IMG/VR virus record: IMGVR_UViG_2700989274_000006
Span: 1 to 33,280 of that record
Reading direction: 5' to 3' (one strand)
Length of the DNA: 33,280 nt
From: a virus
Lineage: Duplodnaviria; Heunggongvirae; Uroviricota; Caudoviricetes
How positions within the stretch are numbered: position 1 is the first letter of the stretch; each line of letters opens with the position of its first letter. Positions 4,786 to 27,126 of the stretch are shown here, piece after piece. Below the pieces are notes generated by a model that was not told the origin of the DNA, did not search any database, and saw only the letters and a list, made by a program, of their open reading frames with translations. Position numbers and translations under genes: made by a program.

Positions 4786-5577
4786 TCAATTTGGTGTGAT
4801 TTTTCCACTTTCAGTCATGATAGCGATTGCTTCGTCGATAGTCTGTGTTGTAAAGAGCGAGTTTTCCCTACAGTCCTTGCGAATCACCTTCCTGTTTTTT
4901 TGCACAGAAATGTTCTCGCACCAAGCTAATGTTTCGGCGGCATGCTTTTCTTCCATGCTAATGTCCAAAAAAGCGAGGCGGCTATCAAGGGATTGCATAT
5001 CCTCATTGACAATTGAAGGACTGGATTCTAGGAGGTTCAAACGGTTTTCAACATCGGCAACCTTGCCTTTCACCTGTGAGACGTCTTCCACCAATTTTTC
5101 ATGTCTGTGGATAGCATCAGCAAGTGCTCGTGAGTTTTGGGCCAATATTTCAGCCATTTGCGCGAGGGCAGATCCTTTTGCTTCTGGCGGTGGTGGATAT
5201 ACTCCATGTTTAGTCAACGATGGTATGACCTCATGGAATAACCATTTTTGAAAGCGCTTACCAGCCGCGCTTCGGTCACTCGACATAACTCGATACAAAC
5301 CTGGTTGGGTGACGAAGATCTCTTTCTGACCTTCAAAAACACCATTTTCAGCATCTGTAGTAATATACTCATCGGGGTCAAGAGCCTGTAATTGCGCCCT
5401 GATTATTCCAGCCATCGATTTTACTGTGTAATCAGCGTTGATTTCTCTATTTTCTTTATTCAGCGTGATTAAAACATCTCGTAGTGAGATATATAGAATC
5501 TCACCAAGTATCAATGTTCTTAGATCACTTTCACCAGTCTCACCACGGTAACATATCTTGGTCAGGTTACTATTCAT
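4786..5577 (-). CDS. BRO-N domain protein (phage antirepressor-like)
   Basis: 263 aa; N-terminal Bro-N signature QPGLYRVMSSDRSAAGKRFQKWLFHEVIPSLTKHGVY; coiled-coil-like C-terminus; GAGGA 4-5 nt upstream of the ATG. Confidence 0.6.
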   Translation of the reverse strand: MNSNLTKICYRGETGESDLRTLILGEILYISLRDVLITLNKENREINADYTVKSMAGIIRAQLQALDPDEYITTDAENGVFEGQKEIFVTQPGLYRVMSSDRSAAGKRFQKWLFHEVIPSLTKHGVYPPPPEAKGSALAQMAEILAQNSRALADAIHRHEKLVEDVSQVKGKVADVENRLNLLESSPSIVNEDMQSLDSRLAFLDISMEEKHAAETLAWCENISVQKNRKVIRKDCRENSLFTTQTIDEAIAIMTESGKITPN

Positions 5578-5632
5578 TGATCCTCACATCGCAAAGTATA
5601 GGCACATTCAAATCAGTATCTTTTTTCCTGTG

Positions 5633-5665
5633 CTGTTCTGAGGTGAGTATATCACCTCAGAACAG
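5633..5665. repeat. Perfect 14-bp inverted repeat with 5-nt loop
   Basis: ctgttctgaggtga (5633-5646) / gtata / tcacctcagaacag (5652-5665); lies between the 3' end of the methyltransferase-helicase-T5orf172 operon and the BRO-N gene start; no U-tract on either strand. Confidence 0.5.
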
Positions 5666-5691
5666 GTGGCCAAATTCGGTGTGTCACTTCA

Positions 5692-6870
5692 CTATGCCTT
5701 CACCAGTTTCGCAGACATGGGGTCATAAACATACCCAATGATGCTACCATCCTTAATACGTGCAACAGCCTCATCGATAACGAATAACGGAACGAGAAAC
5801 CATTCCTCGGGCTGTACTGGATGGCCGAAACGGTCGTTAATGGTAATGTTAAGCCTTGCGGGTGCAAACAACCTGTGAAACAGGTTTTCCATCCGGGTGC
5901 GGTTGATGCCTGCAAGCTTGTATGAAGCTACTACCTCGACCTTCGCTAACAGATAGGTGGAATCGTGTTCCGCATTGGCAATACGCGCCTCTACTTTGCC
6001 GCCAGTCACTCCAATCTTGTGAATGACATCACGATGTTCAGCTACATAAGGGTTATCAGATAGCGAACGCAACACATAAATGGTGCCACTTTCTAGATCG
6101 CTCTCTTCTAGAGCATCGCTGAATAAAGGCCCCATGTCTGGATCGGTAATTCGGCGTGCTGTTTCGTCTTTATACAAAGCACGAACCAGTGACAGCCGAA
6201 GTAGGTTGCTTTCCGTACCATTCGAGTAAATGACACGCAGTCGAGCATCTTTCTTCCCCTGTGGCGAATCGAACTCTTCACCTTCCTCAGCCACATAAGC
6301 CGTTTGACCATCCAGGATGAACCAATGGCCCACTTCAATCGTTGCATACTGTCCAAAAGGTCGGGTCACTCTTAACCCTGAACTTAGATCACTGCGCACC
6401 TGTTCAAATAGCGGTTTGAATGTATCAAAATCCTCGCACGGCTTGCGATCCGCGATCCCTTGTACAGCACGCTTTTCGGAGCTAGCACGAACATGACGCA
6501 AGACTGTGATATCGTCCTCGCTGGTAACATCCGCCAGTTCGGCAGCCAAATTATCGATATCGATAAATTCGTCCGCTGACTCCGCTCCCTCCCCCCCTCC
6601 GGCCAACAAGCCCTGATGATCCAGCGGCTCTAGCAAGGCACGGCAGTCTGGGAGACTGCGTAGCCGGTCGAGCCGCACTGCATAGAGGCGCTCGAAGATC
6701 TCACGATCTTCGCCGTGTTGCGGCGCACGTCCATGTTGGTCAGCGAAGCGCTGGATTTCCTCAAAACCTGCGATGATGCGTTCCTCGCTGGCTGGACGTC
6801 CTTTTTTCTTCTCCGGTGGTGCAAATTCGGCAAGTTCTGCCGCCAAATCGTCTAAATCAGAATTACTCAT
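5692..6870 (-). CDS. T5orf172 (GIY-YIG-like) domain protein, third gene of the candidate defense operon
   Basis: C-terminal motifs GTIYVLRS, HKIGVTGGKVEARI, MENLFHRLF, EEWF match the T5orf172 family pattern; preferred start at 6870 (MSNSDLDD, GGAGGG 5 nt upstream, 8-nt overlap with the helicase stop); the longest ORF extends to 6936. Confidence 0.6.
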   Translation of the reverse strand: MSNSDLDDLAAELAEFAPPEKKKGRPASEERIIAGFEEIQRFADQHGRAPQHGEDREIFERLYAVRLDRLRSLPDCRALLEPLDHQGLLAGGGEGAESADEFIDIDNLAAELADVTSEDDITVLRHVRASSEKRAVQGIADRKPCEDFDTFKPLFEQVRSDLSSGLRVTRPFGQYATIEVGHWFILDGQTAYVAEEGEEFDSPQGKKDARLRVIYSNGTESNLLRLSLVRALYKDETARRITDPDMGPLFSDALEESDLESGTIYVLRSLSDNPYVAEHRDVIHKIGVTGGKVEARIANAEHDSTYLLAKVEVVASYKLAGINRTRMENLFHRLFAPARLNITINDRFGHPVQPEEWFLVPLFVIDEAVARIKDGSIIGYVYDPMSAKLVKA

Positions 6871-8908
6871 AATGTCCCTCCGCCCTAAAACGCATAAACG
6901 CGGCTGCACCTTCTGCAAGGTGCTTTTCCCAGGCATCCGGCGAAGTTAACGATGGGAGGCGTCCACGTTCACGTTTGAATTCAGCAGCACGCTTGGCGAT
7001 CACTTTGGCATCTTCAGGCGTGATCGAGGTACGCTTGGCCGAGATGGCCGCCGCGACCTGCTTCAAGCTATCTTCGCTCATTGTCTTAGCAAGGATGGCG
7101 TAGGCTTCACCAAAGGGATTGATGCGGTCGATAAGATCTATGTCTAAATCGCGTACGTCCATCGCAAAGCGACGCACTCCGTCAATAAGGGCAGTATTGA
7201 GCGTCCCATCGTTCTCGCCGTTGACAATACGCTTAGCCTGCTGCGTGAGATTAAGGGCGGCAATAGCGTGCTGACGCACAGCCTCCTGATCTTCAGCGCC
7301 AAGTTCAGGGTACTTTTCTTTGATGATCTTCCCCATACGAACCTGTGTTAATTCTTCAGGAATGAGCTCTTCGTCGAACAGTCCACGTTCGATGGCGGGC
7401 TTATCTTGCACAAAAGCCGCGATCACTTCATTTAAATCTTCCTGGCAGATGCGTGCCGCCTCTTTGCTCCTGGGCTCGGCAAGTCCCTTAATCTCGATTT
7501 GATACGTCCCTGTCTGCTCATTAACACCAAAATTGCAGTTATCCGGGTCATACCCTCCTTCACCATAATCAAAACCTGGGGTCGGGCCGCTTTCTGGGTT
7601 CTTAGGCTTGAACTCGAAGCGCGGAGCCAATACTTGCTCCATCAGCAGGCTTGCCGCGATGGCTTTCAAGGTATCGTTGACTGCCTCGGTGACTGCCCCC
7701 TCTACAGCATCCGGCTCGGCGATCAGGTTAGTAAACCTTGCGCGGGTTTTACCCGGCGCGTCGCGAGTGGCGCGACCGATGATCTGCACGATCTCAGTCA
7801 GGCTGGCACGGTAACCAACGGTCAACGCATGTTCGCACCAGATCCAGTCGAAACCTTCCTTCGCCATACCAAGTGCAATAATGATGTCCACATAATCACG
7901 GTCTGTCTTCATTTCTGCAGCACGGAGACTTTCCTGAATCTTGCCTTGGCTGGTTGGGTCCACCAGGTCAGCAATACGTAACACGCGTCCATCGAGGCAT
8001 TTGACTAGCTGAAAACCAGTCACAGGATCCGCTCCTTGCCAATCGCCAAGCTCGCCGAGAATGTGCTCCACCTCTTTGATTTTATCCTTCGTGCTCTCGC
8101 GCGAATTGACGTTGGGAATATGGATAATGGTCTTCTTGTCAGGATCGAGTACATTGAGGATGTCATCGACGTAGGAGCCACTGTAGAAGAAGTAGCCGAT
8201 ATCGAGTTGCTTGAGGTATTCGTAGCCGTTAAGTTGTTCGTAGTAGGTGTAGGTGACGGTATCGAACCTGGACTCATCCTGAGGAGCCAACACGGCCTCC
8301 GCATCACCCCGGAAGTAGGATCCGGTCATGGCAACGATGTGCGTCTTGTCCCGCGCGATAAACTGCCCCAGCTGCTGACCAAGCTTATTATCCGGGTTAG
8401 CTGACACATGGTGGAATTCATCGACCGCGATCAGGCGATCGTCAAACGCTTCTATACCGTAGGCATCGACCGCGAAGCGAAAGGTTGCGTGTGTGCAAAC
8501 AAGCACCTTGTCACTACTTTCAAGAAAAGAGCCAAAAGATCTTACCTTGCCACCGTTGTCGTTACCGGGCGCGTTGCACAGGTTCCACTTAGGTTCGACA
8601 TGCCAATCAGTCCAGAATCCAAACTGCGATAGCGGTTCATCGTTGAAGCTCGCGCCGATAGATTTTTCCGGCACAACGATGATTGCCTGTTTAATCCCTT
8701 GATTTTCGAGTTTGTCGAGTGCGACGAACATCAGAGCACGACTCTTACCGGAGGCGGGCGGCGACTTGATGAGAAGATATTGTTCTCCGCGCTTCTCATA
8801 GGCCCTTTCTTGCATAGGCCGCATCCCAAGAGCATTAGCCTTGGTCGATGCTCCGCTGCGTGAGTAGGTAACGGAAACGGACGGTACTGATTTAATCTTG
8901 TTGCTCAT
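6863..8908 (-). CDS. SF2 DExH-box helicase/translocase (type III restriction Res-like ATPase)
   Basis: 681 aa; Walker A SPPASGKS, motif II VDEFHH, motif III MTGS, motif VI QIIGRATR; ~250 aa C-terminal extension of unknown function; start overlaps the methyltransferase stop (ATGA). Confidence 0.8.
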   Translation of the reverse strand: MSNKIKSVPSVSVTYSRSGASTKANALGMRPMQERAYEKRGEQYLLIKSPPASGKSRALMFVALDKLENQGIKQAIIVVPEKSIGASFNDEPLSQFGFWTDWHVEPKWNLCNAPGNDNGGKVRSFGSFLESSDKVLVCTHATFRFAVDAYGIEAFDDRLIAVDEFHHVSANPDNKLGQQLGQFIARDKTHIVAMTGSYFRGDAEAVLAPQDESRFDTVTYTYYEQLNGYEYLKQLDIGYFFYSGSYVDDILNVLDPDKKTIIHIPNVNSRESTKDKIKEVEHILGELGDWQGADPVTGFQLVKCLDGRVLRIADLVDPTSQGKIQESLRAAEMKTDRDYVDIIIALGMAKEGFDWIWCEHALTVGYRASLTEIVQIIGRATRDAPGKTRARFTNLIAEPDAVEGAVTEAVNDTLKAIAASLLMEQVLAPRFEFKPKNPESGPTPGFDYGEGGYDPDNCNFGVNEQTGTYQIEIKGLAEPRSKEAARICQEDLNEVIAAFVQDKPAIERGLFDEELIPEELTQVRMGKIIKEKYPELGAEDQEAVRQHAIAALNLTQQAKRIVNGENDGTLNTALIDGVRRFAMDVRDLDIDLIDRINPFGEAYAILAKTMSEDSLKQVAAAISAKRTSITPEDAKVIAKRAAEFKRERGRLPSLTSPDAWEKHLAEGAAAFMRFRAEGHYE

Positions 8909-11712
8909 GCATTAGTTCTCACTTTACGCTTCTTGCCTTTGGCCGGTGCAGCAGAAGCGGCCATCTTTATATAAAGATCAAATAGCTTTTCAAGCCGCTC
9001 TGTATCATTCTTAAAGCGACGGCCGATGTAGATGCGCTCCAGTACTTCATCATTGCGATCATGCGCAGCCCGCAGATCAGTAGGCATGTTAGCAGGATCG
9101 TATAGGTCCGCGATGGTCGCGGGAAAATGATGCTCACGCGCCAGAAGTATGTCCTCCGCGCAGCGTGTGAGGTCAGCCTTGTTTTTTTCTGTGAGTTTTG
9201 GTACTGGGAAGGTGTTCCAGCCGAGGGTGTTAGAGTAGCGGTAGCGTGTTTCCAATTTTCCGCAGATGGTGGCGATCCAAACCAGGTGTAGACGAGATGC
9301 AATGAGCGCAAGATTCCAGAGCGGAGCGTCGTAGAGAGCAAAGGCGAGGTTACTGACTACCGAATGATTATCAATCAGTCCAACAGGAAGATACTCGCGC
9401 CCTTCCGATGAAACCCCCGGTAGAATCAGCGTGTGCTTGCCACCGTGATACATTTCGCGAAACTGATGAGCCCGTGATGCTAACTCATTCGTACCAGCAT
9501 CTTTACTTTTGAGCCGCATTTCCCGAACGCCATCAATCCGACCCCGAATAGACGCAATCTCCAAAGCTTGCGGCAATTTTACATCAGGGATCCAGAGGCA
9601 CTTACGTACTACTCCGCGAATAAACTCGGCAGAACCATAGATGCGCCGAAGAAATGTCTCTTCATCCTGCTTGCTCAAACCGAGCGAAACCGCGTCATCC
9701 GCCGATAACAAAAGATTTCCCCCATCGACGGGCATGTTGCCAAAAGACATATCCGGCAGACCCGATATGCTCTTGCGCTGGCCCTCGACTACAACATCCT
9801 CACCAACACTCAGATAGGGCGTGATGTTTGTCGCCTCGCGTACAGTAGTTTGGCCATTGCGGTCCAAGTCGTAAAGTAGCCTTGTCTTACTCACATCCGT
9901 AGATAGGCCGACGATAGCGACTGTTACACCCGCGTTGTGTGCAGCAAGGTTCGTCCATTTGAAGCTGGAGTGCGCGAAGCGAATGTGGGAGCCACATTTG
10001 AAAATTGCTGGCCACAGGATAGGAACAATTCGGCCTTGACAGATAGAGTTGGTGCTAACAAAAGCCGAATCCGTTGGTGTGGCTTGCGCGTAGGCAGCAG
10101 CTTTCATGAACCAACCACCAACATAATCGATTTGTTTAGACGAAATACCATAAGGTTCAAATACCGAAGCCAAATCCGCTTTCTGCTCTTTAGTCTGCGT
10201 TTGGCTACCTTTGTAAGGTGGGTTACCACAGATGTATGTCTCCCCACCTTCGTTCTGAAAGCCAATCTCTGCTTGACCGAGAGGCGTCTCAAAGAGGTTA
10301 TCTGCCTGCAACTTCACGCCAATTCCGGACGGAGGGCAAACGCTCAACCAATCAATCCGCAATGCGTTGCCACATGTAATCCAATTATCATTACGCAGAG
10401 GAAGAAACTCGGCCAGTGCAAGTTTTAGTCCCCGGTACACCACATCGCACTGATACTCAGCAATAACTAGCGCGAGACGGGCAATCTCCGCAGGGAAATC
10501 TCGTATTTCGATCCCGCGAAAGTTGGTAAGAGGGATGTCAGAGGCATTATCCATCTCGCCACGTCGTCGATTAATCTCGGCCTCGATGGCTCGCATTTCC
10601 TTGTACGCAATCACTAAGAAGTTGCCAGATCCACATGCTGGGTCGAATACGCGGATTCGGGCCATACGCTTGCGCAGATTGAGCAGCATGCGCGGATTGT
10701 CACCGGCTTCATCCAGTTTCGCCCGCAGTTCGTCGAGGAATAGTGGGTTAAGCACCTTGAGTATATTGGGGACACTAGTGTAATGCATTCCCAACTCACC
10801 ACGCTCTTCGTCTTCGGTAATGGCCTGAATCATCGAGCCGAATATGTCTGGGTTGATTTTGGTCCAATCCAGATTGCCAACATGTAGAAGATAGGATCGC
10901 GCAATACGGCTGAAGCGCGGTACCTCCTCACTTCCCGAGAAAAGAGCGCCGTTTACATAAGGAAACTCAGCAGCCCAACGCGGGATACCGACAACACTTC
11001 GCTCATCGCGTGGGGTGTTCATTGCACGAAACAACGTGGCGATGACCTCGTGCAAATTAGAAGCGTCGCGCTCACTCATCTGCGCAATAGTGTCAGTAAA
11101 GCGCCCCTTGCCTATAAATATGTCAGTGTCTTCGGCGAAAAAGCAGAAAATTAGACGCGCCATGAACTTGTTCATGTCATGACGACGCCCCGAAGTACCC
11201 CATTCAGGATTGTCTTTTAACAGTTCGACGTACAGGCGGTTCAAACGGCTAGTAGCACGGATGTCAAAGGCGTCTTCGCTGATCTGCCGAACAGTGCTGA
11301 TACCTGCCAATGGCAAAAAGAAGCCGAAGTGATCGGGAAAGTCTTTAAAGGCACAAGCCACAGTCTGACCACTGTTGAGGTCCTCGGCTTCAAAGTATTT
11401 GCCGTCCGTGGCAAGGATGAATTTCGCCTTGGCCTTGCCTGTTGCCGGGCTGGCCTTAAGTGCAGCCAGCATCTGTGTGACTTGGCCCCCTTCACTGGCC
11501 AGAATGTGGATGTTGTTTGTCTGAAGAACACCACCCAAGTCGGACTTATTCGATGCCCCGGCGCGCAGACGTTTGATGGTCGTTTCCTTGTTACCAAAGG
11601 CTTCAAGAAAAGCATAAGGAAACTCTATAGGATCAAAGGGTTGTTCCGCAAGATCCGTGATGGCTTGCTCAATTTCTACGGCGTTCATTTGCGTACAGTT
11701 CTCCATTGGCAT
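8905..11712 (-). CDS. MmeI-family (type IIG/IIL-like, YeeA-like) N6-adenine DNA methyltransferase, apparently without endonuclease motif
   Basis: 935 aa; SAM motif I FDPACGSGNFLV, catalytic motif IV GNPPY; further MmeI-family blocks MARLIFCFFAEDTDIF, LGMHYTSVPNILKVLNPLFLDEL; no PD-(D/E)xK seen in the N-terminal ~120 aa. Confidence 0.85.
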   Translation of the reverse strand: MPMENCTQMNAVEIEQAITDLAEQPFDPIEFPYAFLEAFGNKETTIKRLRAGASNKSDLGGVLQTNNIHILASEGGQVTQMLAALKASPATGKAKAKFILATDGKYFEAEDLNSGQTVACAFKDFPDHFGFFLPLAGISTVRQISEDAFDIRATSRLNRLYVELLKDNPEWGTSGRRHDMNKFMARLIFCFFAEDTDIFIGKGRFTDTIAQMSERDASNLHEVIATLFRAMNTPRDERSVVGIPRWAAEFPYVNGALFSGSEEVPRFSRIARSYLLHVGNLDWTKINPDIFGSMIQAITEDEERGELGMHYTSVPNILKVLNPLFLDELRAKLDEAGDNPRMLLNLRKRMARIRVFDPACGSGNFLVIAYKEMRAIEAEINRRRGEMDNASDIPLTNFRGIEIRDFPAEIARLALVIAEYQCDVVYRGLKLALAEFLPLRNDNWITCGNALRIDWLSVCPPSGIGVKLQADNLFETPLGQAEIGFQNEGGETYICGNPPYKGSQTQTKEQKADLASVFEPYGISSKQIDYVGGWFMKAAAYAQATPTDSAFVSTNSICQGRIVPILWPAIFKCGSHIRFAHSSFKWTNLAAHNAGVTVAIVGLSTDVSKTRLLYDLDRNGQTTVREATNITPYLSVGEDVVVEGQRKSISGLPDMSFGNMPVDGGNLLLSADDAVSLGLSKQDEETFLRRIYGSAEFIRGVVRKCLWIPDVKLPQALEIASIRGRIDGVREMRLKSKDAGTNELASRAHQFREMYHGGKHTLILPGVSSEGREYLPVGLIDNHSVVSNLAFALYDAPLWNLALIASRLHLVWIATICGKLETRYRYSNTLGWNTFPVPKLTEKNKADLTRCAEDILLAREHHFPATIADLYDPANMPTDLRAAHDRNDEVLERIYIGRRFKNDTERLEKLFDLYIKMAASAAPAKGKKRKVRTNA

Positions 11713-11993
11713 GTGACCGCCCTGCTGCTACTGGTGTGCAGTGAACTCATGTCATATCCTAGGTTTTCTTGGAAATTTTTGACCGTAAGTTTAACAGAAT
11801 AGAACCCAGCGCTGTAGCTGATTCAGTCTCAGATCCACGTTTCAGAAAGCCCTATTATGTATTTATGGCGAGAATTTTAGCATTGAGATATTTTCGATAA
11901 AATATACATATTTTCAGCCAATTAAAGACTGCTAAATTCATGGTATATGAGACGCTCGCATGTGAGTAACTTCCGTTCTTATTTCTGGTTTTC

Positions 11994-13316
11994 TTAAAAC
12001 GTATTAAGGTTGCACCGAATATGGTTTTCCCCGCTGACCCTGACCCGATTGACTGTCCAGTCAGCTATGACGTCAAGCACATGACGAAGGTAGCTTTCTG
12101 GATCCACGCCGTTTAGTTTGCACGTCCCGATCAGACTGTACATCAGCGCTACACGCTCACCTCCGTGGTCTGAGCCGAAGAACAGCCAGTTTTTTCTCCC
12201 CAAACTGACCATCCGCAGCGCATTTTCAGCGATGTTGTTATCGGCTTCTGTCCAGCCATTGCCTGCATAGTGCGTCAGGGCCGGCCACTGGTTAAGGGCG
12301 TACGCGAACGCTTTCGCCAGCTCTGAGTGTCGTGACAGGGTGTTCATCTTTTCACGCAGCCAGCTTTCCAGGGATTTCAGCAGCGGTTTCGCTTTCTGCT
12401 GACGTTCAGCAAGACGTTGCTCCGCCGGCATTCCCCTTATTTCCGCCCCGATGGCATACAACCCGCCGATACGCTTCAGGGCATCCTCCGTCAGCGCCGA
12501 CGGCGTGCGGGCGTACACATCGTGGATTTTACGGCGGGCGTGAGCCCAGCAGGCGGCTTCCGTTATCTGGCCACCGCGGTACAACTCGTTGAATCCTGCA
12601 TACGCATCCGCCTGCAGCACTCCCCTGAAGCCGGCAAGATGGGTCTGCGGGTGGATGGCTTTTCTGTCCGGGCTGTAAGCGAACCACACCGCCGGTGCGA
12701 CTGCTGACCCGGCGTTGCGGTCATCACGAACGTACTTCCACAATCGCCCGGACTTCGTCTTCTTATTGCCCGACAGCAGCATCTGGACCGGGGTATCATC
12801 GACATGGAGTTTGCCGTCGCTCAGGACATAGCCCCGAAGCGCCTCCTCCAGCGGTGACAGCAGCCTGCAGCATGCATCCACCCAGCCCGACAGGAGGGAG
12901 CGGCTCAGTTCCACACCCTGGCGGCTATATATTTCAGACTGGCGGTACAGCGGGGTATGCTCTGCATACTTTGAGCCCAGTACCCGGGCCAGCAGCCCCG
13001 CTCCGGCGATACTCCGCTCGATGGGACGTGAAGGCGCGGGGGCCTGCACGATAGCGTCGCATTTTGTACAGGCGTGTTTTTCCCGCACGGTCCGGATAAC
13101 CCGGAAGGCGCTGCGCATCAGCTCCAGCTGTTCAGCAGTATCTTCACCCAGCCAGCGCAGTGAATCGCCACAGTCCGGGCAGCATGATGCCGCCGACAAC
13201 AGCCGTTTTTCGTCACGAGGGAGTGATTCGGGGAACGGTTTACGGGTGCGGGTCTGGCGAAGCGACCACGCTCCAGCCGTTTGGTCAGCAGACACAGCCT
13301 GTCGCCGGTAGACCAC
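11994..13316 (-). CDS. tnpC: IS66-family transposase TnpC (N-terminus likely truncated)
   Basis: 440 aa; conserved IS66 TnpC blocks LPRDEK, CPDCGDSLRWLGEDTAEQLEL, IVQAPAPSRPIERSIAG, HTPLYRQSEI; only ~26 aa precede the LPR motif whereas family members usually carry a longer N-terminal zipper region. Confidence 0.8.
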   Translation of the reverse strand: MVYRRQAVSADQTAGAWSLRQTRTRKPFPESLPRDEKRLLSAASCCPDCGDSLRWLGEDTAEQLELMRSAFRVIRTVREKHACTKCDAIVQAPAPSRPIERSIAGAGLLARVLGSKYAEHTPLYRQSEIYSRQGVELSRSLLSGWVDACCRLLSPLEEALRGYVLSDGKLHVDDTPVQMLLSGNKKTKSGRLWKYVRDDRNAGSAVAPAVWFAYSPDRKAIHPQTHLAGFRGVLQADAYAGFNELYRGGQITEAACWAHARRKIHDVYARTPSALTEDALKRIGGLYAIGAEIRGMPAEQRLAERQQKAKPLLKSLESWLREKMNTLSRHSELAKAFAYALNQWPALTHYAGNGWTEADNNIAENALRMVSLGRKNWLFFGSDHGGERVALMYSLIGTCKLNGVDPESYLRHVLDVIADWTVNRVRVSGENHIRCNLNTF

Positions 13317-13486
13317 AGCAATTTTACCTGACTGCCACTGCAGCCCCGGAAGATGAAGACTTGGCCGGACATCGGGTCGTCTTTCAGTGCCGTCTGCACT
13401 TTTGCCGCCAGCCCGTTGAAGCCGTTGCGCATGTCGGTGATACCGGCAACCAGCCAGATTTTAGTGCCTGCAGGAAGATTTATCAT
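13118..13486 (-). CDS. tnpB: IS66 Orf2 (TnpB)
   Basis: N-terminal WLVAGITDMRNGFNGLAAKVQ ... KRLERGRF is the IS66 OrfB signature; the C-terminal tail looks atypical and overlaps the tnpC start by ~200 nt, consistent with a frameshift or deletion. Confidence 0.75.
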   Translation of the reverse strand: MINLPAGTKIWLVAGITDMRNGFNGLAAKVQTALKDDPMSGQVFIFRGCSGSQVKLLWSTGDRLCLLTKRLERGRFARPAPVNRSPNHSLVTKNGCCRRHHAARTVAIHCAGWVKILLNSWS

Positions 13487-13866
13487 ACAGTCCCTCGCAT
13501 CAGTTCGCGCAGGACAGTGGTGATGAGTTCAGTTGAGGGATGAGTCAGTGTTATATCTCCGCCCCGACATTTTATGTGACAGGCAGTCTGAGGTGAACAG
13601 GATGGCGGTTCGGGCGTTGGGGGAGATGGCTCTGCCCGAAATTGCACGGGTATGAGAGCAGGAAGCGACGATGCGTTTTTCCGTGGGTGGCAGACCCGCC
13701 CTTCACGTTGCCAGAGCCTTATCCATTTAAAGAGCAGGTTGTCATTGACATCATGTTGTCGGGCCAGCGCAGCAACACTTCCTTCTTTTTCAAGTGCCAG
13801 CCTGACCAGTTCCATTTTAAACTCAGGGGAATATCGTTTTCGGGGAAGTCTTTCTTTGGCGCGCAT
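13483..13866 (-). CDS. tnpA: IS66 Orf1 (TnpA, HTH protein)
   Basis: 127 aa; RKRYSPEFKMELVRLALEKEGSVAALARQHDVNDNLLFKW is an IS66/IS3-type N-terminal HTH; stop overlaps the tnpB start (ATGA). Confidence 0.8.
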   Translation of the reverse strand: MRAKERLPRKRYSPEFKMELVRLALEKEGSVAALARQHDVNDNLLFKWIRLWQREGRVCHPRKNASSLPALIPVQFRAEPSPPTPEPPSCSPQTACHIKCRGGDITLTHPSTELITTVLRELMRGTV

Positions 13867-14128: not shown

Positions 14129-14252
14129 CACGCTGAGAACCCTGTATGAATAAAACTGATGGCCTTCAGGCCCTGGAAAAACCGCTGGCGTCGCTTCCCG
14201 ATACGCTTCGCCAGCTTATTCTTGAACGTATTCAGAATCTGACCCACTACGA

Positions 14253-14262
14253 NNNNNNNNNN
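14253..14262. other. Assembly gap (10 N)
   Basis: Run of n characters; interrupts a plus-strand ORF that begins MNKTDGLQALEKP at 14146. Confidence 0.99.
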
Positions 14263-14281
14263 GCCACCGACGGCATTGCGG

Positions 14282-14695
14282 TCAGAAAAAGATGATATTG
14301 AATCGCCCATTGAAAAACTGGAGGGCAGCGTCGCTGATCTGAATAAAAAATTGTCGGTGCTGATTCCTTCTGAAGATGAAAAAAAACGCCGCGATGAGCA
14401 GTTTGCGGCGTTTTACGATTATTGCATTGAAGTTACTCTCGCAGGAATTTTGTGAAGATTTTTGAGGAGGGTAAATCTCTTCAGTAAGCTTAATGGCGGA
14501 CGCTGCAATTAATTCAGGAAGGTCCGCAAGGTCATCTGTCAGTGGATATGATGAAAAATCGGCGGCAGTTCTGTTAAGAAGCGCTTTAACTAATTCCTTT
14601 TCCTTCTCCGGCAACAAGTTGATTAGAGCTACGACTGCTTGCCTGAGTGCGATTAAATCAGCAAAAGTTTGTTTAGGTAGATTTGTGTAATCCAT
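14282..14695 (-). CDS. Hypothetical protein (extent uncertain)
   Basis: ORF with AGAGG about 9 nt upstream of the ATG at 14695; its C-terminal half overlaps a plus-strand reading frame that crosses the gap, so the true coding extent is ambiguous. Confidence 0.3.
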   Translation of the reverse strand: MDYTNLPKQTFADLIALRQAVVALINLLPEKEKELVKALLNRTAADFSSYPLTDDLADLPELIAASAIKLTEEIYPPQKSSQNSCESNFNAIIVKRRKLLIAAFFFIFRRNQHRQFFIQISDAALQFFNGRFNIIFF

Positions 14696-14808
14696 AGTCG
14701 CCTCTGTGTTTATCAGATTGACATCCTCCTCCCGCCAGTGCCCATCACTGGTGAGGTAAGATTTAACATATCCGGGGATTTGAAGCCGATAAATCCTGAT
14801 AAATATCC

Positions 14809-15836
<1,028 letters not shown>

Positions 15837-16087
15837 ATTAATATTAAATCGGATTATTTTTAGCGCTGAATGTGAAATTTAAATAAAAAGGACTCTTCCA
15901 TGAGTCAAAATCCTTGAAATCTTAAGGGTAAGATAAAAGGTCATTAGACAGAATGACACGTTTTATTAATAAATAAAGCTATTGTTTCATTCGTGTGTTT
16001 TTCTTTACAAAAGTAATCCTTGCTATGGTTGGTTAATCATGCGTTAATGGTGTTCTGGTTTGTTACAAAATTATCTGAAGCAGTCAT

Positions 16088-16096
16088 TGTTATAAT
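16088..16096 (+). promoter_or_regulatory. Extended -10 element (TGtTATAAT), candidate promoter for the csp gene
   Basis: tgttataat at 16088-16096, about 105 nt upstream of the csp ATG, which would give the long 5' UTR typical of cold-shock genes; no good -35. Confidence 0.3.
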
Positions 16097-16199
16097 TTTA
16101 TTATTTGTACCTCTTGAGATTTCCTTGTTGGTTTTTCTCTCTGATATTTTTTTTCGGACCATTCTGCCCAAGGGCTAACTTCTTCAAAAGGTAATAATG

Positions 16200-16412
16200 A
16201 TGTCTAACAAAATGACTGGTTTAGTGAAATGGTTTAACCCTGAAAAAGGTTTTGGTTTCATCACGCCGAAAGATGGTAGCAAAGATGTGTTTGTCCATTT
16301 CTCAGCTATTCAGAGCAACGATTTCAAAACGTTAACTGAGAATCAGGAAGTCGAATTTGGTATTGAGAACGGACCTAAAGGCCCCGCGGCTGTTCATGTT
16401 GTGGCACTTTGA
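16200..16412 (+). CDS. cspI: CspA-family cold-shock protein (CspI-like, prophage-borne)
   Basis: 70 aa; [38 protein letters not shown] contains the RNP1/RNP2 motifs; the sequence matches my recollection of E. coli Qin-prophage CspI. Confidence 0.85.
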
Positions 16413-16611
16413 GGTAGAAAATATTACAAACCATATTCACTTTAGATGCCCGTGTTGCCATGGTTCTCAGTATAGAACATCATCTTTTGATGTTTCTGAC
16501 AGGAATCCTTTCGGGGCAAAATGTATCTTTTGTAAATCAATGATGATTACATTTGATAATATTTCACAATACTTAAATGTTAGCCGTCTATCGTTAGATT
16601 TAAGAAAGTGA
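16396..16611 (+). CDS. Possible small zinc-ribbon protein
   Basis: CPCCHG...(21 aa)...CIFC pairs of Cys; ATG at 16396 overlaps the csp 3' end; no clear RBS; ends 7 nt before a strong terminator. Confidence 0.25.
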
Positions 16612-16618
16612 AAATGAA

Positions 16619-16640
16619 GGCTCCTTCGGGAGCTTTTTTG
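16619..16640 (+). terminator. Rho-independent terminator (UUCG tetraloop)
   Basis: GGCTCC-TTCG-GGAGC followed by TTTTTT. Confidence 0.7.
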
Positions 16641-16723
16641 CTTAGTGTCTAGTCGATGGATACTCACATATTACGGTAACATTATGAAAAAAAATAATAG
16701 TTTTTTTTAACTCTGAACCAGCA

Positions 16724-16915
16724 ATGGTAGTGCCAGTGATGACCGGAGTTAACACCATCATGCGTGAATATCCAAATGGCGAAACAACACACCTCACTGT
16801 AATGGCTGCAGGGTTTCCATCTCTGACCGGAGATCATAAAGTCATTTATGTAGCAGCGGATCGACATGTAACTTCAGAAGAAATTCTGGAAGCAGCAATG
16901 AGACTCTTGAATTGA
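16724..16915 (+). CDS. Hypothetical small protein
   Basis: 63 aa ORF; no recognised motif. Confidence 0.3.
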   Translation: MVVPVMTGVNTIMREYPNGETTHLTVMAAGFPSLTGDHKVIYVAADRHVTSEEILEAAMRLLN

Positions 16916-17084
16916 TTTGATTCTAATGCATTGATAATAAATGATAATCATCTTTATCTGTTTGTGTGAAATTTAGACCGTCGTATGTTGATTATTGCGA
17001 TGTTTCATCTTATCTTTTATACGTTTGCTCCATATAATTGACACTACTGTGTACCAGGAAAGTCATAACAGACTAAAAGAGGAA

Positions 17085-17261
17085 ATGATGAACATTGAAG
17101 AGTTAAAAACAAAAACAGAAGCAGATATTTCTGAATATATAACAAAAAAAATCATTGAGCTTAAGAAAAAGACCGGGAAAGAAGTTACCAGTATCCAGTT
17201 TACTGCACGGGAAAAAATGACTGGTCTTGAAAGCTATGATATCAAGATTGATTTAATCTAG
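17085..17261 (+). CDS. GnsA/GnsB-family protein (prophage moron)
   Basis: MMNIEELKTKTEADISEYITKKIIELKKKTGKEVTSIQFTAREKMTGLESYDIKIDLI matches the Gns family; AAGAGGA upstream of the ATG at 17085. Confidence 0.7.
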   Translation: MMNIEELKTKTEADISEYITKKIIELKKKTGKEVTSIQFTAREKMTGLESYDIKIDLI

Positions 17262-17554
17262 TCTGTTTAGTATTAGCATCAATTTCTCATCAGATGCTAT
17301 TCAACAATACAAATTACCCATAAACCTCGTTTTTACGGGGTTTTGTTATATTTAAACATTACCGAATAGGTATAAATCTCGATTGTCGATGGTATTGGTT
17401 GTGTGACAATACCTAGTCTTTCCGGTATGCCTGAAGAGAATACAAACGACAGATTATGTAAGGGAAACGCGCTGAATCTTTAACTCTTTCATGCTGAGTG
17501 ATTTGACGTTATATTTTTAGCCGTAAGTGAAGAGCAAACGCATGGAGCGACAAA

Positions 17555-17761
17555 ATGCATAAAGATCAATACACTGATGCCCCCTCCCAGGAGCAGGTTC
17601 GTGTAAAAACTATGCTTAATAGCACCATTTCGATGGGTTACCCGGATGTTGTAATTGCATGTATAGAACATCAAGTGTCTCTGGAAGCATTCAGGGCAAT
17701 TGAGGCCGCGTTAGTAAAGCACGATAAGAATACGAAGGATTATTCCCTGGTGGTTGACTGA
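17555..17761 (+). CDS. Hypothetical small protein
   Basis: 68 aa ORF with GGAG 8 nt upstream of the ATG; no recognised motif. Confidence 0.4.
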
Positions 17762-18127
17762 TCACCATAACTGCTAACCATTCTGACCATTTCACAAGTG
17801 ACAGAGTCAATATCGTATTCTGTCACTGTCAGGCTAATACAGCAATGCAATTCAACTACAGCAATGCCTCGTATTTAGGTGAATTTACAATATCGTCCAG
17901 TTCGGATGCCGGCTGCATTTCTGAAGATAAGGCATTTCGGTTCTCGTATTTTCCCCTCATGCTCGTCAGTCCTGCGCGTAGTAAGAAACAGGACACTCAC
18001 ACTAATTTGTGTGGGCATGCTGTGATGTCCTTCTGAATTATCCCCATGCCATTATGTAAAGCTCTGTTTCAGATGCTCGTCACGGTTGTCAGGCTGTCGG
18101 GTCCTCCCAGTGGGGGTCCCTGCCACG

Positions 18128-18139
18128 GGGCGGGAGCGT
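18128..18139 (+). other. Candidate cosN cohesive-end site of the prophage
   Basis: acg-GGGCGGGAGCGT-cgcgg closely resembles lambda acg-GGGCGGCGACCT-cgcgg (9 of 12 positions, identical flanks); lies 196 nt upstream of the Nu1-like ATG at 18324, versus ~190 nt in lambda. Confidence 0.55.
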
Positions 18140-18323
18140 CGCGGAAAAAGGCTAGTTTTTGCATTTCCATGGCGGCGGCAGCATGTTTGGTAATTTATTG
18201 ATAATTAAAAGTTATTTCTCTTTTCAGCTGTACAATATTTTTTTCTCCCTGTCATTAGACTAGTTTGCAATTAATTGAAATATATAAATAAACCTGATTT
18301 TCACCTGCCAGATGGAGTTGCTT

Positions 18324-18851
18324 ATGTCAAATGTGAGCGGGATCGGTGATGCTTATTACTGGAGTGTTTTTAAAATCGCCGAGGCCTTTGGGCTTCACTG
18401 GGACACAGTAAAAAAACGGCTCCTCGCGGCCAACACTCCTGTGGCTGCGACTGTCAGGGGGAACCCCGTTTACGCCCTGCAGCATGTCGGGCCTGCCCTG
18501 TTTAGTGTGAAGCATGAGGCAGCAGACTCTGTTCATGATCCATCCCGTATGGAGCCGAAAGAGAGAAAGGACTGGTACCAGTCGGAAAATGAAAGGATCA
18601 AGCTGGAAAAGGAGCAGCGAAAACTCATCCCCGTTGATGAAGTAGTCATCGTCTATTCGTCCATGAGAAAGGCTGTCGTCCAGGTTCTGGAGACAATTCC
18701 GGATGTTCTTGAACGCGATTGCGCCCTGACTCCTCAGGCCGTTGGCGTTGTACAGCAGGCCATTGATGACCTGCGATACACTCTTCAGGAAAAATCCTAC
18801 GAGGCTTGTGCTGCTGAATTAATTCCTGATGAGGAAGGAGAGAGTCTCTAG
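18324..18851 (+). CDS. Terminase small subunit (Nu1-like)
   Basis: N-terminal winged-HTH-like pattern similar to lambda Nu1; immediately upstream of the large terminase; an alternative ATG at 18312 is in frame. Confidence 0.65.
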   Translation: MSNVSGIGDAYYWSVFKIAEAFGLHWDTVKKRLLAANTPVAATVRGNPVYALQHVGPALFSVKHEAADSVHDPSRMEPKERKDWYQSENERIKLEKEQRKLIPVDEVVIVYSSMRKAVVQVLETIPDVLERDCALTPQAVGVVQQAIDDLRYTLQEKSYEACAAELIPDEEGESL

Positions 18852-18859
18852 GAGGAATA

Positions 18860-20959
18860 ATGGGTTTTTCATCAGCCCGAAATTTGGGAAGGGACATATC
18901 GGCAGGATTTTCCCCACCACGTCGCATGCCGATTTCGGAGGCTGTTAAAAAATTCATGCGTGTTCCCAAGGGGGCTGGTAACTCGGTGCCATGGGATCCT
19001 GAACTGACACCCTACATCATTGAGCCCATGAACTGCCTGGCATCGCGTGAATACGATGCGGTGATTTTTGTTGGTCCTGCGCGAACAGGGAAGACCATTG
19101 GTCTGATCGATGGATGGATTGTCTATACCATCGTTTGCGATCCTTCGGACATGCTCGTTGTGCAGATGACCGAAGATAAGGCCCGCGAGCATTCAAAAAA
19201 GCGCCTCGACAGAACGTTCAGAAGCAGTGCGGCGGTAAAGAAAAGAATGAGTCCACGTCGTAATGACAATAATGTCCATGATAAGACGTTCAGGGATGGC
19301 TCGTTCCTTAAAATTGGTTGGCCCTCGGTCAACATTATGTCGTCGTCGGATTACCGGTTTGTCGCCTTAACCGATTACGACCGTTTTCCGGAGAATATCG
19401 ACAGCGAGGGTGATGGTTTCTCCCTGGCCTCAAAACGTACCACCACATTTATGTCCGCCGGGATGACTCTGGTGGAGAGCTCGCCGGGACGTGACATCTG
19501 CGACAGCAAATGGCGACGTAAGTCGCCTCATGAAGCGCCACCGACGACTGGTATTCTTTCCCTTTACAATCGTGGTGACCGCCGCCGCTGGTACTGGCCA
19601 TGTCCGCACTGCGGTGAATATTTTCAGCCAGCCATGGATGCCATGACCGGCTACCGTAATGAACCGGATCCCTTTAAAGCCAGTGAGGCGGCGTATCTAC
19701 TTTGCCCGCACTGCAGCGGCATTATCACGGCGGAGAAAAAGCGTGAGCTCAATAGTGCAGGAGTCTGGTTGCGTGAAGGTCAGGTCATTGATTGTAACGG
19801 CAACGTTTCCGGTGAACCGCGCCGCTCCCGTATCGCCAGTTTCTGGATGGAAGGGCCAGCTGCTGCGTATCAGACCTGGGCGCAACTGGTTTACAAATTA
19901 CTGACTGCAGAACAGGAGTATGAAGCGACAGGAAGTGAAGAAACACTCAGGGCGGTTATCAACACCGACTGGGGATTACCTTATCTTCCCCGCGCCAGCA
20001 TGGAGCAACGAAAAAGTGAACTGCTTGAGCAGCGGGCAGAGCCAGTTCCTTCCCGCAGTGTGCCGGATGGCGTTAATTTTCTTGTGGCGACAGTGGATGT
20101 GCAGGCGGGACGTCATCGCCGTTTTGTGGTTCAGGTAACGGGCTATGGCAGCCGTGGCGAACGCTGGATTATTGATCGTTACAACATCACGCAGTCATTG
20201 CGCGGTGACAGCGACGGGGAGAGCCAGCGAATTGATCCGGCCAGCTATCCGGAAGACTGGGATGTCCTGCTGACGGATGTTTTTCATAAAAGCTGGCCGC
20301 TGGCCTCCGATCCTTCTCAACAAATGCGACTGATGGCAATGGCGGTGGACTCCGGCGGTGAAGACGGGGTCACTGATAATGCCTATAAATTCTGGCGTCG
20401 TTGCCGTCGTGATGGCCTTGGTAAACGTATTTACCTGTTTAAGGGCGACAGCATCCGGCGCGCAAAACTGATCACCCGTACATTCCCTGATAACACCGGA
20501 CGAACGGGCCGACGGGCGCAGGCCGCAGGTGATGTGCCGCTCTGGCTTCTTCAGACGGATGCACTGAAAGACCGGGTGAATAACGCGTTATGGCGTGACT
20601 CGCCAGGTCCCGGCTATGTGCATTTCCCTGACTGGCTGGGGAGCTGGTTTTACGACGAACTGACGTATGAAGAGCGGAGCAGTGACGGGAAATGGAGTAA
20701 GCCGGGTCGCGGTGCCAACGAAGCTTTTGACCTGATGGTGTATGCCGAGGCTCTGGTCATTCTGCATGGATACGAAAAGATCCGCTGGCCGGATGCACCG
20801 GAGTGGGCGAGCCGGGAAACCTGGCTGGAGTGTGTCCCGGACAGTACCGAACCGTCATCCTCACCGGAACCGGTATCCACGCCTGTTAAAAAACAAAAAC
20901 GGAAGAAAACAGTAACTGACGATGTTAACCCCTGGCTGACTTCCGGAGGATGGTTATGA
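18860..20959 (+). CDS. Terminase large subunit (GpA family)
   Basis: 699 aa; AGGAGG RBS; GpA-family signature YWPCPHCGEYF (lambda ACPHCGEEQY); matching gene order. Confidence 0.9.
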   Translation: MGFSSARNLGRDISAGFSPPRRMPISEAVKKFMRVPKGAGNSVPWDPELTPYIIEPMNCLASREYDAVIFVGPARTGKTIGLIDGWIVYTIVCDPSDMLVVQMTEDKAREHSKKRLDRTFRSSAAVKKRMSPRRNDNNVHDKTFRDGSFLKIGWPSVNIMSSSDYRFVALTDYDRFPENIDSEGDGFSLASKRTTTFMSAGMTLVESSPGRDICDSKWRRKSPHEAPPTTGILSLYNRGDRRRWYWPCPHCGEYFQPAMDAMTGYRNEPDPFKASEAAYLLCPHCSGIITAEKKRELNSAGVWLREGQVIDCNGNVSGEPRRSRIASFWMEGPAAAYQTWAQLVYKLLTAEQEYEATGSEETLRAVINTDWGLPYLPRASMEQRKSELLEQRAEPVPSRSVPDGVNFLVATVDVQAGRHRRFVVQVTGYGSRGERWIIDRYNITQSLRGDSDGESQRIDPASYPEDWDVLLTDVFHKSWPLASDPSQQMRLMAMAVDSGGEDGVTDNAYKFWRRCRRDGLGKRIYLFKGDSIRRAKLITRTFPDNTGRTGRRAQAAGDVPLWLLQTDALKDRVNNALWRDSPGPGYVHFPDWLGSWFYDELTYEERSSDGKWSKPGRGANEAFDLMVYAEALVILHGYEKIRWPDAPEWASRETWLECVPDSTEPSSSPEPVSTPVKKQKRKKTVTDDVNPWLTSGGWL

Positions 20960-21168
20960 ACCAGAATGATATCGAAGCCATGATTCAGCGTTATACGGAA
21001 GCTGAAATGGCGGTGCTGGACGGAAAATCCGTCACCTTTAATGGTCAGCAGATGACCATGGAAAACTTATCTGAGATCCGGCAGGGACGGCAGGAGTGGG
21101 AGCGCCGCCTTGCGGCTCTGATTACACGACGACGGGGGCATCCCGGGTATCGGCTGGCGAGGTTCTGA
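20956..21168 (+). CDS. Head-tail joining protein (lambda W-like)
   Basis: 70 aa; GGAGGA RBS; size, position and C-terminal RRRG motif resemble lambda gpW. Confidence 0.65.
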   Translation: MNQNDIEAMIQRYTEAEMAVLDGKSVTFNGQQMTMENLSEIRQGRQEWERRLAALITRRRGHPGYRLARF

Positions 21169-24648: not shown

Positions 24649-24671
24649 ACGTCGCAGACAACAACTCTGAT

Positions 24672-24691
24672 GGCCCGTAAGGGCTTTTTTT
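24672..24691 (+). terminator. Weak intrinsic terminator after the capsid gene
   Basis: GGCCC-GTAA-GGGCT followed by a T7 run; short stem. Confidence 0.4.
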
Positions 24692-24734
24692 GTACCTGAA
24701 ATCAGCCCCTGAACGGGGCTGTGCGGAGACAGTT

Positions 24735-25058
24735 ATGGCAAAGAATTTTGTAGAAGAAGGAAAAACGGTGGCGATTGTTGCCAGTGCAGCCATCAGCAGC
24801 GGAGATCTGGTGCAGGTGGGTGATGTTTTTGCGGTGGCGCTGACCGATATTCCACAGGGTGAAACAGGCGACGGCATGACCGAAGGTGTGTTTATCCTGC
24901 CTAAACTGAAAACGGATGACATGAAAACGGGTAAGAAGGTTTATCTGAAGTCCGGAAAAGTTCAGCTGACTAACAGCGGCTCTGATCCGCTGGTCGGGGT
25001 TGTCTGGGCAGATGCCGGAACCAGTGCAGAAGAAGTGCCGGTAAAACTCAATGTCTGA
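24735..25058 (+). CDS. Putative head accessory/decoration protein
   Basis: 108 aa ORF directly after the capsid gene; assignment is by position and a vague recollection of a DUF2190-type family only. Confidence 0.35.
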   Translation: MAKNFVEEGKTVAIVASAAISSGDLVQVGDVFAVALTDIPQGETGDGMTEGVFILPKLKTDDMKTGKKVYLKSGKVQLTNSGSDPLVGVVWADAGTSAEEVPVKLNV

Positions 25059-25326: not shown

Positions 25327-25337
25327 AGAGGTGTGGG

Positions 25338-26314: not shown

Positions 26315-26319
26315 AGGAG

Positions 26320-27069: not shown

Positions 27070-27089
27070 CAGGACGATACTCATCATTT

Positions 27090-27113
27090 GCCCCGGTTAT
27101 CCGGGGCTTTTTT
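27090..27113 (+). terminator. Strong intrinsic terminator between V and G
   Basis: GCCCCGG-TTAT-CCGGGGC perfect 7-bp stem followed by TTTTTT. Confidence 0.7.
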
Positions 27114-27126
27114 GCAGGTGGAGAAC

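Follow-up and report, generated by a model that had tools for sequence, protein, structure and literature searches.

Introduction

MmeI-type restriction enzymes have relatives that modify DNA but do not cut it. Morgan 2009 (PMC2731913) described a second set of MmeI homologues that are without the PD-ExK nuclease and 'invariably' adjoin genes for a YeeB-like DEAD helicase and a YeeC-like GIY-YIG protein. Homology of this second set to MmeI lies beyond the first ~100 residues, the N-terminus being different, and when two members, YeeA and a protein from Moraxella, were expressed, neither had endonuclease activity; the authors proposed a restriction-modification (RM) system resembling Type I, with single-strand modification. 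Here we analyse an operon of this architecture on the minus strand of a 33,280-nucleotide (nt) stretch, positions 1-33,280 of the viral record IMGVR_UViG_2700989274_000006, which we refer to as a whole as the window. The operon, at 5692-11712, encodes a methylase, a helicase and a YeeC-type protein that probably act together in an RM-like defence.

The Bacillus subtilis member was renamed from YeeA to DnmA by Nye 2020 (PMC7261158), who found N6-methyladenine (m6A) at GACGAG, showed that Y465 is required and observed no growth defect upon dnmA deletion. The mark has m6A-dependent effects on promoters (Nye 2020, PMC7261158; Fernandez 2023), no defence has been seen for this copy, and Fernandez 2023, while reporting that synteny of the trio is conserved, called the B. 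subtilis locus a relic. In Vibrio crassostreae, by contrast, inactivating yeeAB restored sensitivity to one phage group (Piel 2021, bioRxiv 10.1101/2021.05.05.442762). This yeeA-yeeB locus, a methylase and a helicase in a strain-specific region beside other defence systems, is the only family member with a demonstrated anti-phage phenotype, in a different host and with different phages, and according to Fernandez 2023 the Vibrio system aligns with DnmA, YeeB and YeeC. The open-access literature (PMC, bioRxiv) to mid-2026 yielded no mechanistic study of the trio and no newer name for it. How the family works bears on whether nuclease-less MmeI-type methylases restrict via a helicase and GIY-YIG pair, on how a host is protected by a mark on a lone strand, and on the role of a dead nuclease domain.

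Results and discussion

Operon layout and family membership

The operon consists of three intact open reading frames (ORFs) on the minus strand, with the following elements (aa, amino acids):

8905-11712, minus strand: yeeA/dnmA-type methylase gene, 935 aa, for an MmeI-family N6-adenine DNA methyltransferase with its own target-recognition domain
6863-8908, minus strand: yeeB-type superfamily 2 (SF2) DExH helicase or translocase gene, 681 aa
5692-6870, minus strand: yeeC-type gene, 392 aa
8905-8908, minus strand: overlap of methylase stop and helicase start, ATGA, the cargo insertion site in other genomes
6863-6870, minus strand: 8-nt overlap of helicase stop (6863-6865) and yeeC ATG (6868-6870), with GGAGGG 5 nt upstream of the ATG
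11713-11993, minus strand: non-coding leader between an IS66 remnant and the methylase gene, presumed promoter region

The mechanical yeeC ORF extends to 6936, but RefSeq and the homologues use the ATG at 6870. Two starts, eight codons apart, are possible for the methylase; RefSeq chooses M9 (11688, 927 aa), and the homologues have MNAVEIE at their N-terminus. A simple sigma-70 scan of the leader returned zero minus-strand sites and did not locate the promoter upstream of the methylase gene. The region 5600-11960 is 100% identical to Escherichia coli ECC-1470 and near-identical (100.0%) to CFSAN051542.

A sequence-only reading of this stretch, made before any database was searched, had described the three minus-strand genes with their ATGA and 8-nt overlaps and the GGAGGG, and all of these are confirmed. 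The motifs it quoted were likewise all located in the three proteins, and Pfam agrees with its domain calls (five MmeI domains, DEAD/ResIII and T5orf172/MUG113). It had also linked the trio to the yeeA-yeeB-yeeC genes of B. subtilis, and rightly so. We recovered the DnmA cluster (DNMA_BACSU; GenBank AAB66474, 'YeeA') and fetched the contig with yeeA-yeeB-yeeC-yeeD...yeeF. The gene order of the window trio is that of dnmA-yeeB-yeeC, and the proteins match over essentially their full length, with 39% identity to DnmA (921 aligned positions), 49% to YeeB (residues 11-628) and 35% to YeeC (residues 17-372, E 6e-56). Both loci share the loss of PD-ExK, the tyrosine of motif IV, the same-strand order and a mobile-element setting; they differ in that the B. 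subtilis trio has a 112-nt gap between helicase and yeeC where the window has an 8-nt overlap, and in that the YeeB tail described below is absent from B. subtilis. We are as good as certain that the window operon belongs to the DnmA/YeeA-YeeB-YeeC family, known since 2009.

With this assignment the trio can no longer count as an uncharacterised system, as the sequence-only reading had proposed, since the architecture was described in 2009 (PMC2731913), the methylase has been characterised as DnmA (PMC7261158) and the trio has been tested in B. subtilis and Vibrio. A match to a characterised system of the same architecture thus largely exists, in the form of the 2009 description and the work on DnmA. 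The proposal of an RM-like defence role, which we consider the best reading, survives; that of an unrecognised system does not. What is new here is the residue analysis of the dead N-terminal domain, the invariant order and 8-nt overlap across phyla, the helicase tail, the cargo junction and the mosaic of target-recognition domains. These findings fill a known gap in RM classification and do not overturn current ideas. With the window operon, a widespread and understudied family has an intact member native to E. coli, which offers a handle for tests with a coliphage panel.

An MmeI-type methylase with a degenerate PD-ExK site

All five MmeI domains of Pfam (MmeI_N, MmeI_hel, MmeI_Mtase, MmeI_TRD and MmeI_C) match the methylase, with E values from 3e-17 to 9.5e-113, and the MmeI structure 5HR4 matches it with E 5.5e-149 over ~820 residues (window residues 96-929). 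The methyltransferase motifs FDPACGSGNFL and GNPPY lie at residues 356-366 and 496-500, respectively, and the score for Pfam N6_Mtase falls just below the cut-off (20.1 vs 20.4 bits). The domains and motifs map as follows:

9871-10716, minus strand: methyltransferase catalytic domain, aa 333-614 (PF20473, E 9.5e-113)
10615-10647, minus strand: motif I, FDPACGSGNFL, located by motif search
10213-10227, minus strand: motif IV, GNPPY; the NPPY tyrosine aligns with DnmA Y465
11212-11688, minus strand: MmeI N-terminal (PD-ExK-derived) domain, catalytically dead, aa 9-167 (PF20464, E 4.5e-33)
9193-9804, minus strand: target-recognition domain (TRD), the hypervariable specificity module, aa 637-840 (PF20466, E 8.9e-82)

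The intact motifs suggest that the window protein methylates DNA, a step that has been shown for the B. subtilis orthologue DnmA (Nye 2020, PMC7261158). MmeI Type IIL/IIG enzymes share the five-domain layout. Methylation (m6A) on a lone strand of an asymmetric site would be expected, and because the TRD of the window protein differs from that of DnmA, its recognition site presumably differs as well.

For the nuclease part, MmeI residues 1-151 were verified against PDB 5HR4 and then aligned with the window protein and 64 homologues. The three catalytic positions compare as follows:

MmeI D70: Q64 in the window protein; Q in 65 of 65 YeeA-type sequences
MmeI E80: E74 in the window protein; variable among the 65 YeeA-type sequences
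MmeI K82: G76 in the window protein; G in 63 of 65 YeeA-type sequences

A search for a D/E-x-K motif within methylase residues 1-95 found none. Residues 60-70 of the methylase form the invariant stretch GGVLQTNNIHI. Judged from these alignments, the fold of the N-terminal domain is kept and the PD-ExK active site is gone. The earlier description of the methylase as 'nuclease-less' is thus correct for the catalytic residues, but not for the domain as such, which is still present. Across phyla (70 loci), median identity is 77% for this dead domain and 48% for the TRD (range 29-85), with 70-87% for the other methylase domains. Such strong conservation of the dead domain argues for a new function, and a docking or signalling surface for the helicase-nuclease pair would be the obvious candidate; docking was first proposed by Morgan 2009 (PMC2731913).

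The end-to-end match of the methylase to the PADLOC model PDLC03598 'REase_MTase_IIG' (939.9 bits), together with the five MmeI domains, could be taken to mean that it is a self-contained Type IIG/IIL enzyme and that the two downstream genes are unrelated neighbours. We consider this very improbable. Essentially all family members have glutamine and glycine in place of the aspartate and lysine of PD-ExK, no endonuclease activity was seen for YeeA or a second member (Morgan 2009, PMC2731913), and the neighbours turn out to be invariant partners (see below). MmeI cuts by its own PD-ExK domain and needs neither ATP nor partner genes, whereas the window trio has a dead domain and obligate neighbours. 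As to partner genes, Morgan 2009 (PMC2731913) contrasts the two groups in this way too. We therefore rejected membership of the MmeI-type IIL/IIG class, on the replaced catalytic residues and the invariant helicase and YeeC. PADLOC 2.0.0 contains no models for helicase or YeeC. Automated annotation would therefore label the family Type IIG, ignoring helicase and YeeC, and defence finders miss two of the three family genes or mislabel the locus.

The helicase and its C-terminal tail

The helicase has the full SF2 motif set (Q motif, Walker A, DEFH, TGS, motif V and motif VI), with SPPASGKS at residues 49-56, VDEFHH at 162-167 and QIIGRATRD at 375-383. Its Pfam scores barely pass the cut-off (DEAD, 27.3 bits; ResIII, 25.7 bits), and its best PDB profile match is the RIG-I-like helicase LGP2 (DHX58; E 4e-4), with further matches to DEAD-box proteins and XPB and one to HsdR at E 1.8. 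A member with fused leucine-rich repeats had contaminated a first helicase profile. When scanned with PADLOC, the helicase gave two marginal PbeA matches only, well above 1e-5, and no DrmA or DrmD match.

6863-7024, minus strand: helicase C-terminal tail, ~aa 629-681, with RGRLPS at 6950-6967; absent from B. subtilis YeeB

When aligned by BLASTP, B. subtilis YeeB (599 aa; L085:5444-7243) matches no further than window residue 628, the window helicase being 82 residues longer. Among family members that are 41-69% identical, the tail shows no variation at P652 and hardly any at F644 and E661. Fernandez 2023 noted that B. subtilis YeeB and YeeC are without C-terminal stretches that are present in the active Vibrio system. 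Loss of the tail is a candidate reason for the negative defence results in B. subtilis, and the negative experiments were all done on this copy, whose helicase is without the conserved tail.

Some distant relatives of the helicase carry additional regions. P0282 (1181 aa) has a C-terminal region of BspA-type leucine-rich repeats (LRR_5), P0261 (838 aa) has a 150-residue extension at its N-terminus, and one member of the aligned helicase set shows a weak match to 'effector-associated domain 10'. Such additions hint at reuse of the YeeB-type motor by other conflict systems.

YeeC, a putative nuclease

YeeC comprises a conserved N-terminal helical region, a beta-rich middle with an invariant NGTES, and a C-terminal T5orf172 domain:

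5755-6087, minus strand: T5orf172 (GIY-YIG superfamily) domain, aa 262-372 (PF10544, E 3.7e-11; PF13455 (MUG113), E 1.9e-13), presumed nuclease effector

GTIYVLRS lies at residues 262-269, HKIGVTGG at 284-291 and PEEWF at 354-358, and G262, Y265, K285, G287, R296, E328 and E356 are invariant in 19 sequences that are 34-89% identical. The invariance of the GIY-YIG tyrosine, arginine and glutamate argues for catalysis. A T5orf172 domain with the conserved arginine and glutamate is an active DNase in Odn of phage ICP1, where the E180A mutant is inactive (PMC8263062).

YeeC had no match in PADLOC, PHROG or NCBIfam, and PDB searches returned no solved relative; its N-terminal and middle regions, though conserved, match nothing known. 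By eye, the helicase C-terminus and the YeeC N-terminus appeared to share a motif ('GR-x-P' helices), but we discarded this idea after BLASTP gave E 18. A permissive Pfam scan for the same motif produced only sub-threshold matches (HNH_repeat, E 0.033; PMBR, E 0.0024).

Invariant order and an internal cargo site

The neighbourhood of the trio was compared in other species by scanning for the helicase in one genome per species. At least 544 stretches encode a relative, and the comparisons below use the best 80 loci. In these, which represent Proteobacteria, Acidobacteriota, Firmicutes, Bacteroidota, Verrucomicrobia and Gemmatimonadota, the helicase is 78-90% identical. All 65 loci with room for it have the methylase upstream on the same strand, and yeeC follows directly downstream in 76 of 76, an arrangement far beyond chance. 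Clustering of the ORFs within 4 kb of the trio in the 80 loci revealed no fourth conserved gene; the commonest neighbours are an HTH/HigA-like ORF (13 of 80 loci) and integrases (9 of 80).

Translational coupling, which the sequence-only reading had proposed for both junctions, is conserved at one of them. The 8-nt overlap between helicase and yeeC is kept in 38 of 39 measurable loci, but the ATGA between methylase and helicase is not a family feature: the gap is at most 69 nt in 37 of 72 loci, and in the other 35 the junction holds an insert of 0.4-4.2 kb on the same strand. According to Pfam, the inserts encode YhcG/DUF1016 PDDEXK proteins, Schlafen AlbA_2 with HATPase_c_4, RhuM, GmrSD_N/DUF262, NucS_C-like and unknown-family proteins. 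Examples, from loci L003-L082, are L003:6895-7983, L011:6247-7812, L020:6146-7995 and L045:6238-7992. The methylase-helicase junction is an internal cargo hotspot, and the window copy is without an insert. Small ORFs in some inserts resemble, by eye only, PIN and BrnT/BrnA toxin-antitoxin pairs.

Exchange of the TRD among E. coli alleles

Among E. coli alleles, helicase and YeeC are 95-100% identical, while identity drops to 23-60% over methylase residues ~440-800. Comparison of window positions 5692-11688 with L083 and L084 gave a synonymous divergence of 0.02-0.03 for yeeC, 0.28-0.36 for the helicase and 1.1-2.0 for the N-terminal half of the methylase. The ratio of nonsynonymous to synonymous divergence (dN/dS) between these alleles amounts to 0.05 in the helicase, 0.04 in the N-terminal 420 aa of the methylase and 0.2 in yeeC, and the genes are thus under purifying selection. 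Because synonymous divergence climbs along the operon while dN/dS stays at 0.04-0.2, we infer that breakpoints of recombination lie within the operon and that its methylase/TRD end is exchanged as a module. Rapid evolution is confined to the TRD, as it is to the specificity modules of RM systems, and the E. coli alleles look like a recombination mosaic in which specificity is swapped onto a constant motor-nuclease backbone.

A probable restriction-like mode of action

Taken as a whole, the trio probably constitutes a three-subunit, ATP-dependent RM-like defence module with a restriction-like mechanism. The MmeI-type subunit would read an asymmetric 6-7 bp site via its own TRD and methylate one adenine on one strand, and its dead N-terminal domain might dock and signal to the helicase-nuclease pair. 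At an unmethylated site, YeeB would hydrolyse ATP and translocate along DNA, as its complete SF2 motif set and strong purifying selection suggest, and YeeC would cleave DNA by its T5orf172/GIY-YIG domain, for which the invariant tyrosine, arginine and glutamate speak. The conserved 8-nt overlap would provide YeeC and YeeB in a fixed ratio. Replication of DNA marked on a single strand yields, at each site, one daughter duplex without the mark, so that a two-site, orientation-dependent rule like the head-to-head collision of Type ISP enzymes would be the most economical and most likely means of self-protection; for hemimethylated sites, Type ISP enzymes follow a rule of head-to-head translocation and collision (PMC3553950). 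Specificity would evolve by swapping of the TRD onto the constant helicase-nuclease backbone, an exchange that is seen among the E. coli alleles.

Several lines of evidence weigh against this restriction-like reading. B. subtilis takes up plasmids without restriction (Nye 2020, PMC7261158), deletions of yeeB and yeeC had no effect on three Bacillus phages, and the DnmA site is not avoided in Bacillus phage genomes (Fernandez 2023). The Vibrio inactivation may have been polar and covers only some phages. The similarity of YeeB is to SF2 proteins in general, with no specific tie to HsdR, Res or Type ISP motors, and T5orf172 can serve as a non-catalytic DNA binder, as in the domesticated endonuclease of the PLE satellite (PMC8096241). 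AlphaFold2 models had a mean predicted local distance difference test score (pLDDT) of 54.8 for YeeC and 43.6 for the helicase and supported no interface; they are poor because the alignments held only near-identical homologues (79-99% identity to the query for YeeC, 90-98% for the helicase). For the E. coli copy the restriction-like reading is drawn from the genes, and we infer that a complex forms, that DNA is translocated and cut, and that a two-site rule applies.

One explanation given for the B. subtilis results is that the methylase is an orphan that acts as an epigenetic regulator and that the yeeB-yeeC pair is the non-functional relic of an RM system. The harmless dnmA deletion, the missing effect on plasmids or phages, the lack of site avoidance and the m6A-dependent promoter effects (Fernandez 2023; Nye 2020, PMC7261158) are all in line with this view. 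Of these, the harmless deletion is compatible with a nuclease that relies on the methylase to find its target, and just as much with an inactive system. Extended to the family, the explanation meets evidence that makes it quite unlikely: the window genes are all intact and full length, dN/dS is ~0.05 in the helicase and the N-terminal half of the methylase, and the trio is kept across phyla (65 of 65 and 76 of 76 loci), which is not expected of a decaying relic. Moreover, the window helicase retains the tail absent from B. subtilis YeeB, the Vibrio copy defends, and the swapping of TRDs between E. coli alleles indicates that specificity is under selection.

A defence that senses methylation without cutting foreign DNA would also be compatible with part of the data. 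It could take the form of replication exclusion as in bacteriophage exclusion (BREX) systems, or of abortive infection in which the helicase-nuclease pair damages host and phage DNA alike. The gamma-class core of the methylase is common to PglX and DrmMI, the DnmA site is not avoided in Bacillus phages, protection by the Vibrio system extends to only some phage subclades, and for all family members the nuclease role of YeeC is a prediction. On the other hand, NCBIfam PglX models match over only ~70 residues with 21-27 bits, far under the family cut-offs of 400-900, and neither PglZ, BrxC or BrxL nor any other conserved partner accompanies the trio in the 80 loci, the window neighbours being island, insertion sequence (IS) and prophage genes. 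We rejected membership of BREX on the PglX scores and the missing partners, and the 'BREX-like' alternative of the sequence-only reading is not supported. Membership of DISARM was rejected too: DrmMI models match parts of the methylase only (best E 1.8e-20), and neither DrmA or DrmB nor a DUF1998 gene was found nearby. As the invariant GIY-YIG tyrosine, arginine and glutamate argue for catalysis, and as the architecture parallels Type I and Type ISP systems (Morgan 2009, PMC2731913; PMC3553950), defence by methylation sensing without cleavage of foreign DNA seems unlikely to us.

The restriction-like reading finds partial parallels in two RM classes. In Type I hsd loci, embedded unrelated genes also occur. 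Further points of likeness with Type I systems are the separation of modification and specificity from the motor and nuclease, a predicted ATP-dependent SF2 motor and the exchange of TRDs, next to the embedding of unrelated defence or toxin genes. In contrast to Type I, the operon has no HsdS, its methylase belongs to the MmeI type, its helicase does not resemble HsdR and the nuclease candidate is a separate protein of the GIY-YIG type instead of a PD-ExK domain of the motor. Membership of Type I was rejected, as the operon has no HsdS-like ORF, PADLOC MTase_I matches with E 1.5e-4 over ~60 residues and HsdR did not rise above the match given earlier. Type ISP enzymes (LlaGI, LlaBIII) share the parts list of nuclease, SF2 motor, gamma-class adenine methylase and TRD, and by analogy they may be the best model for how the trio acts. 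They are, however, single polypeptides with an Mrr/PD-ExK nuclease, whereas the window has three separate ORFs with T5orf172, not Mrr, as the nuclease candidate; membership was rejected on these grounds, and PDB searches with methylase and helicase found no detectable similarity to Type ISP structures.

More tentatively, and with some doubt on our part, the trio could represent a distinct ATP-dependent restriction class, a 'split Type ISP'. The dead PD-ExK domain would dock a pair of helicase and T5orf172 nuclease produced in a fixed ratio, methylation of a lone strand would be read by the two-site rule, and the methylase-helicase junction would be where second-line defence genes land. A T5orf172 nuclease would then be demonstrated in an RM system for the first time, and, with a helicase 78-90% identical across phyla, the trio would be among the most widely transferred RM systems.

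Distribution and genomic setting

The trio transfers freely between phyla. A representative library contains 2,688 relatives of the helicase at E values up to 0.001, the helicase is found on 264 plasmids, of which 119 are conjugative, and one Salmonella/Enterobacteriaceae allele occurs on at least 1,000 contigs. Related E. coli loci are present in 100 of 5,426 complete genomes (~2%) and are always chromosomal; the trio is located in integrase-bearing islands. Phages practically do not carry it, with only 3 fragmentary helicase matches among 50,697 phage records, and we rejected a phage origin of the trio on this basis.

In the window, the operon sits within a CP4-6-type island near thrW, with intF, yagN, ykgV, yagM, yagL, yagK and a BRO-N gene on one side. 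On its upstream side lies a decayed IS66 (11994-13866), the same remnant that stands beside the trio in other E. coli strains. An integrase-bearing island with an adjoining IS66, as inferred earlier from the letters, was thus found. To the right of the IS66 remnant, ~14250-30891 holds lambdoid prophage late genes, including those for a lysozyme, a DUF2514 Rz-like protein, DUF1441, terminase gpA, a lambda-type portal, a ClpP-capsid fusion and a tape measure protein. The junction between island and prophage occurs in zero complete E. coli genomes of the collection, the best records matching one side only, and therefore either the source strain is rearranged or the contig is chimeric.

The BRO-N domain gene (anti-repressor-like in PHROGs) lies at 4786-5577 on the minus strand, 114 nt downstream of yeeC, and a protein identical to its product (WP_023567978.1) is annotated in three E. 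coli islands. Because the gene is absent from all 80 loci of other species, we rejected it as a component of the system and consider it island cargo. A perfect inverted repeat of 14 bp around a 5-nt loop (CTGTTCTGAGGTGA tatac TCACCTCAGAACAG) spans 5633-5665 on the minus strand, between yeeC and the BRO-N gene. It lies 27 nt past the yeeC stop codon and is followed by an A-rich, not a T-rich, run; the hairpin may be terminator-like or regulatory.

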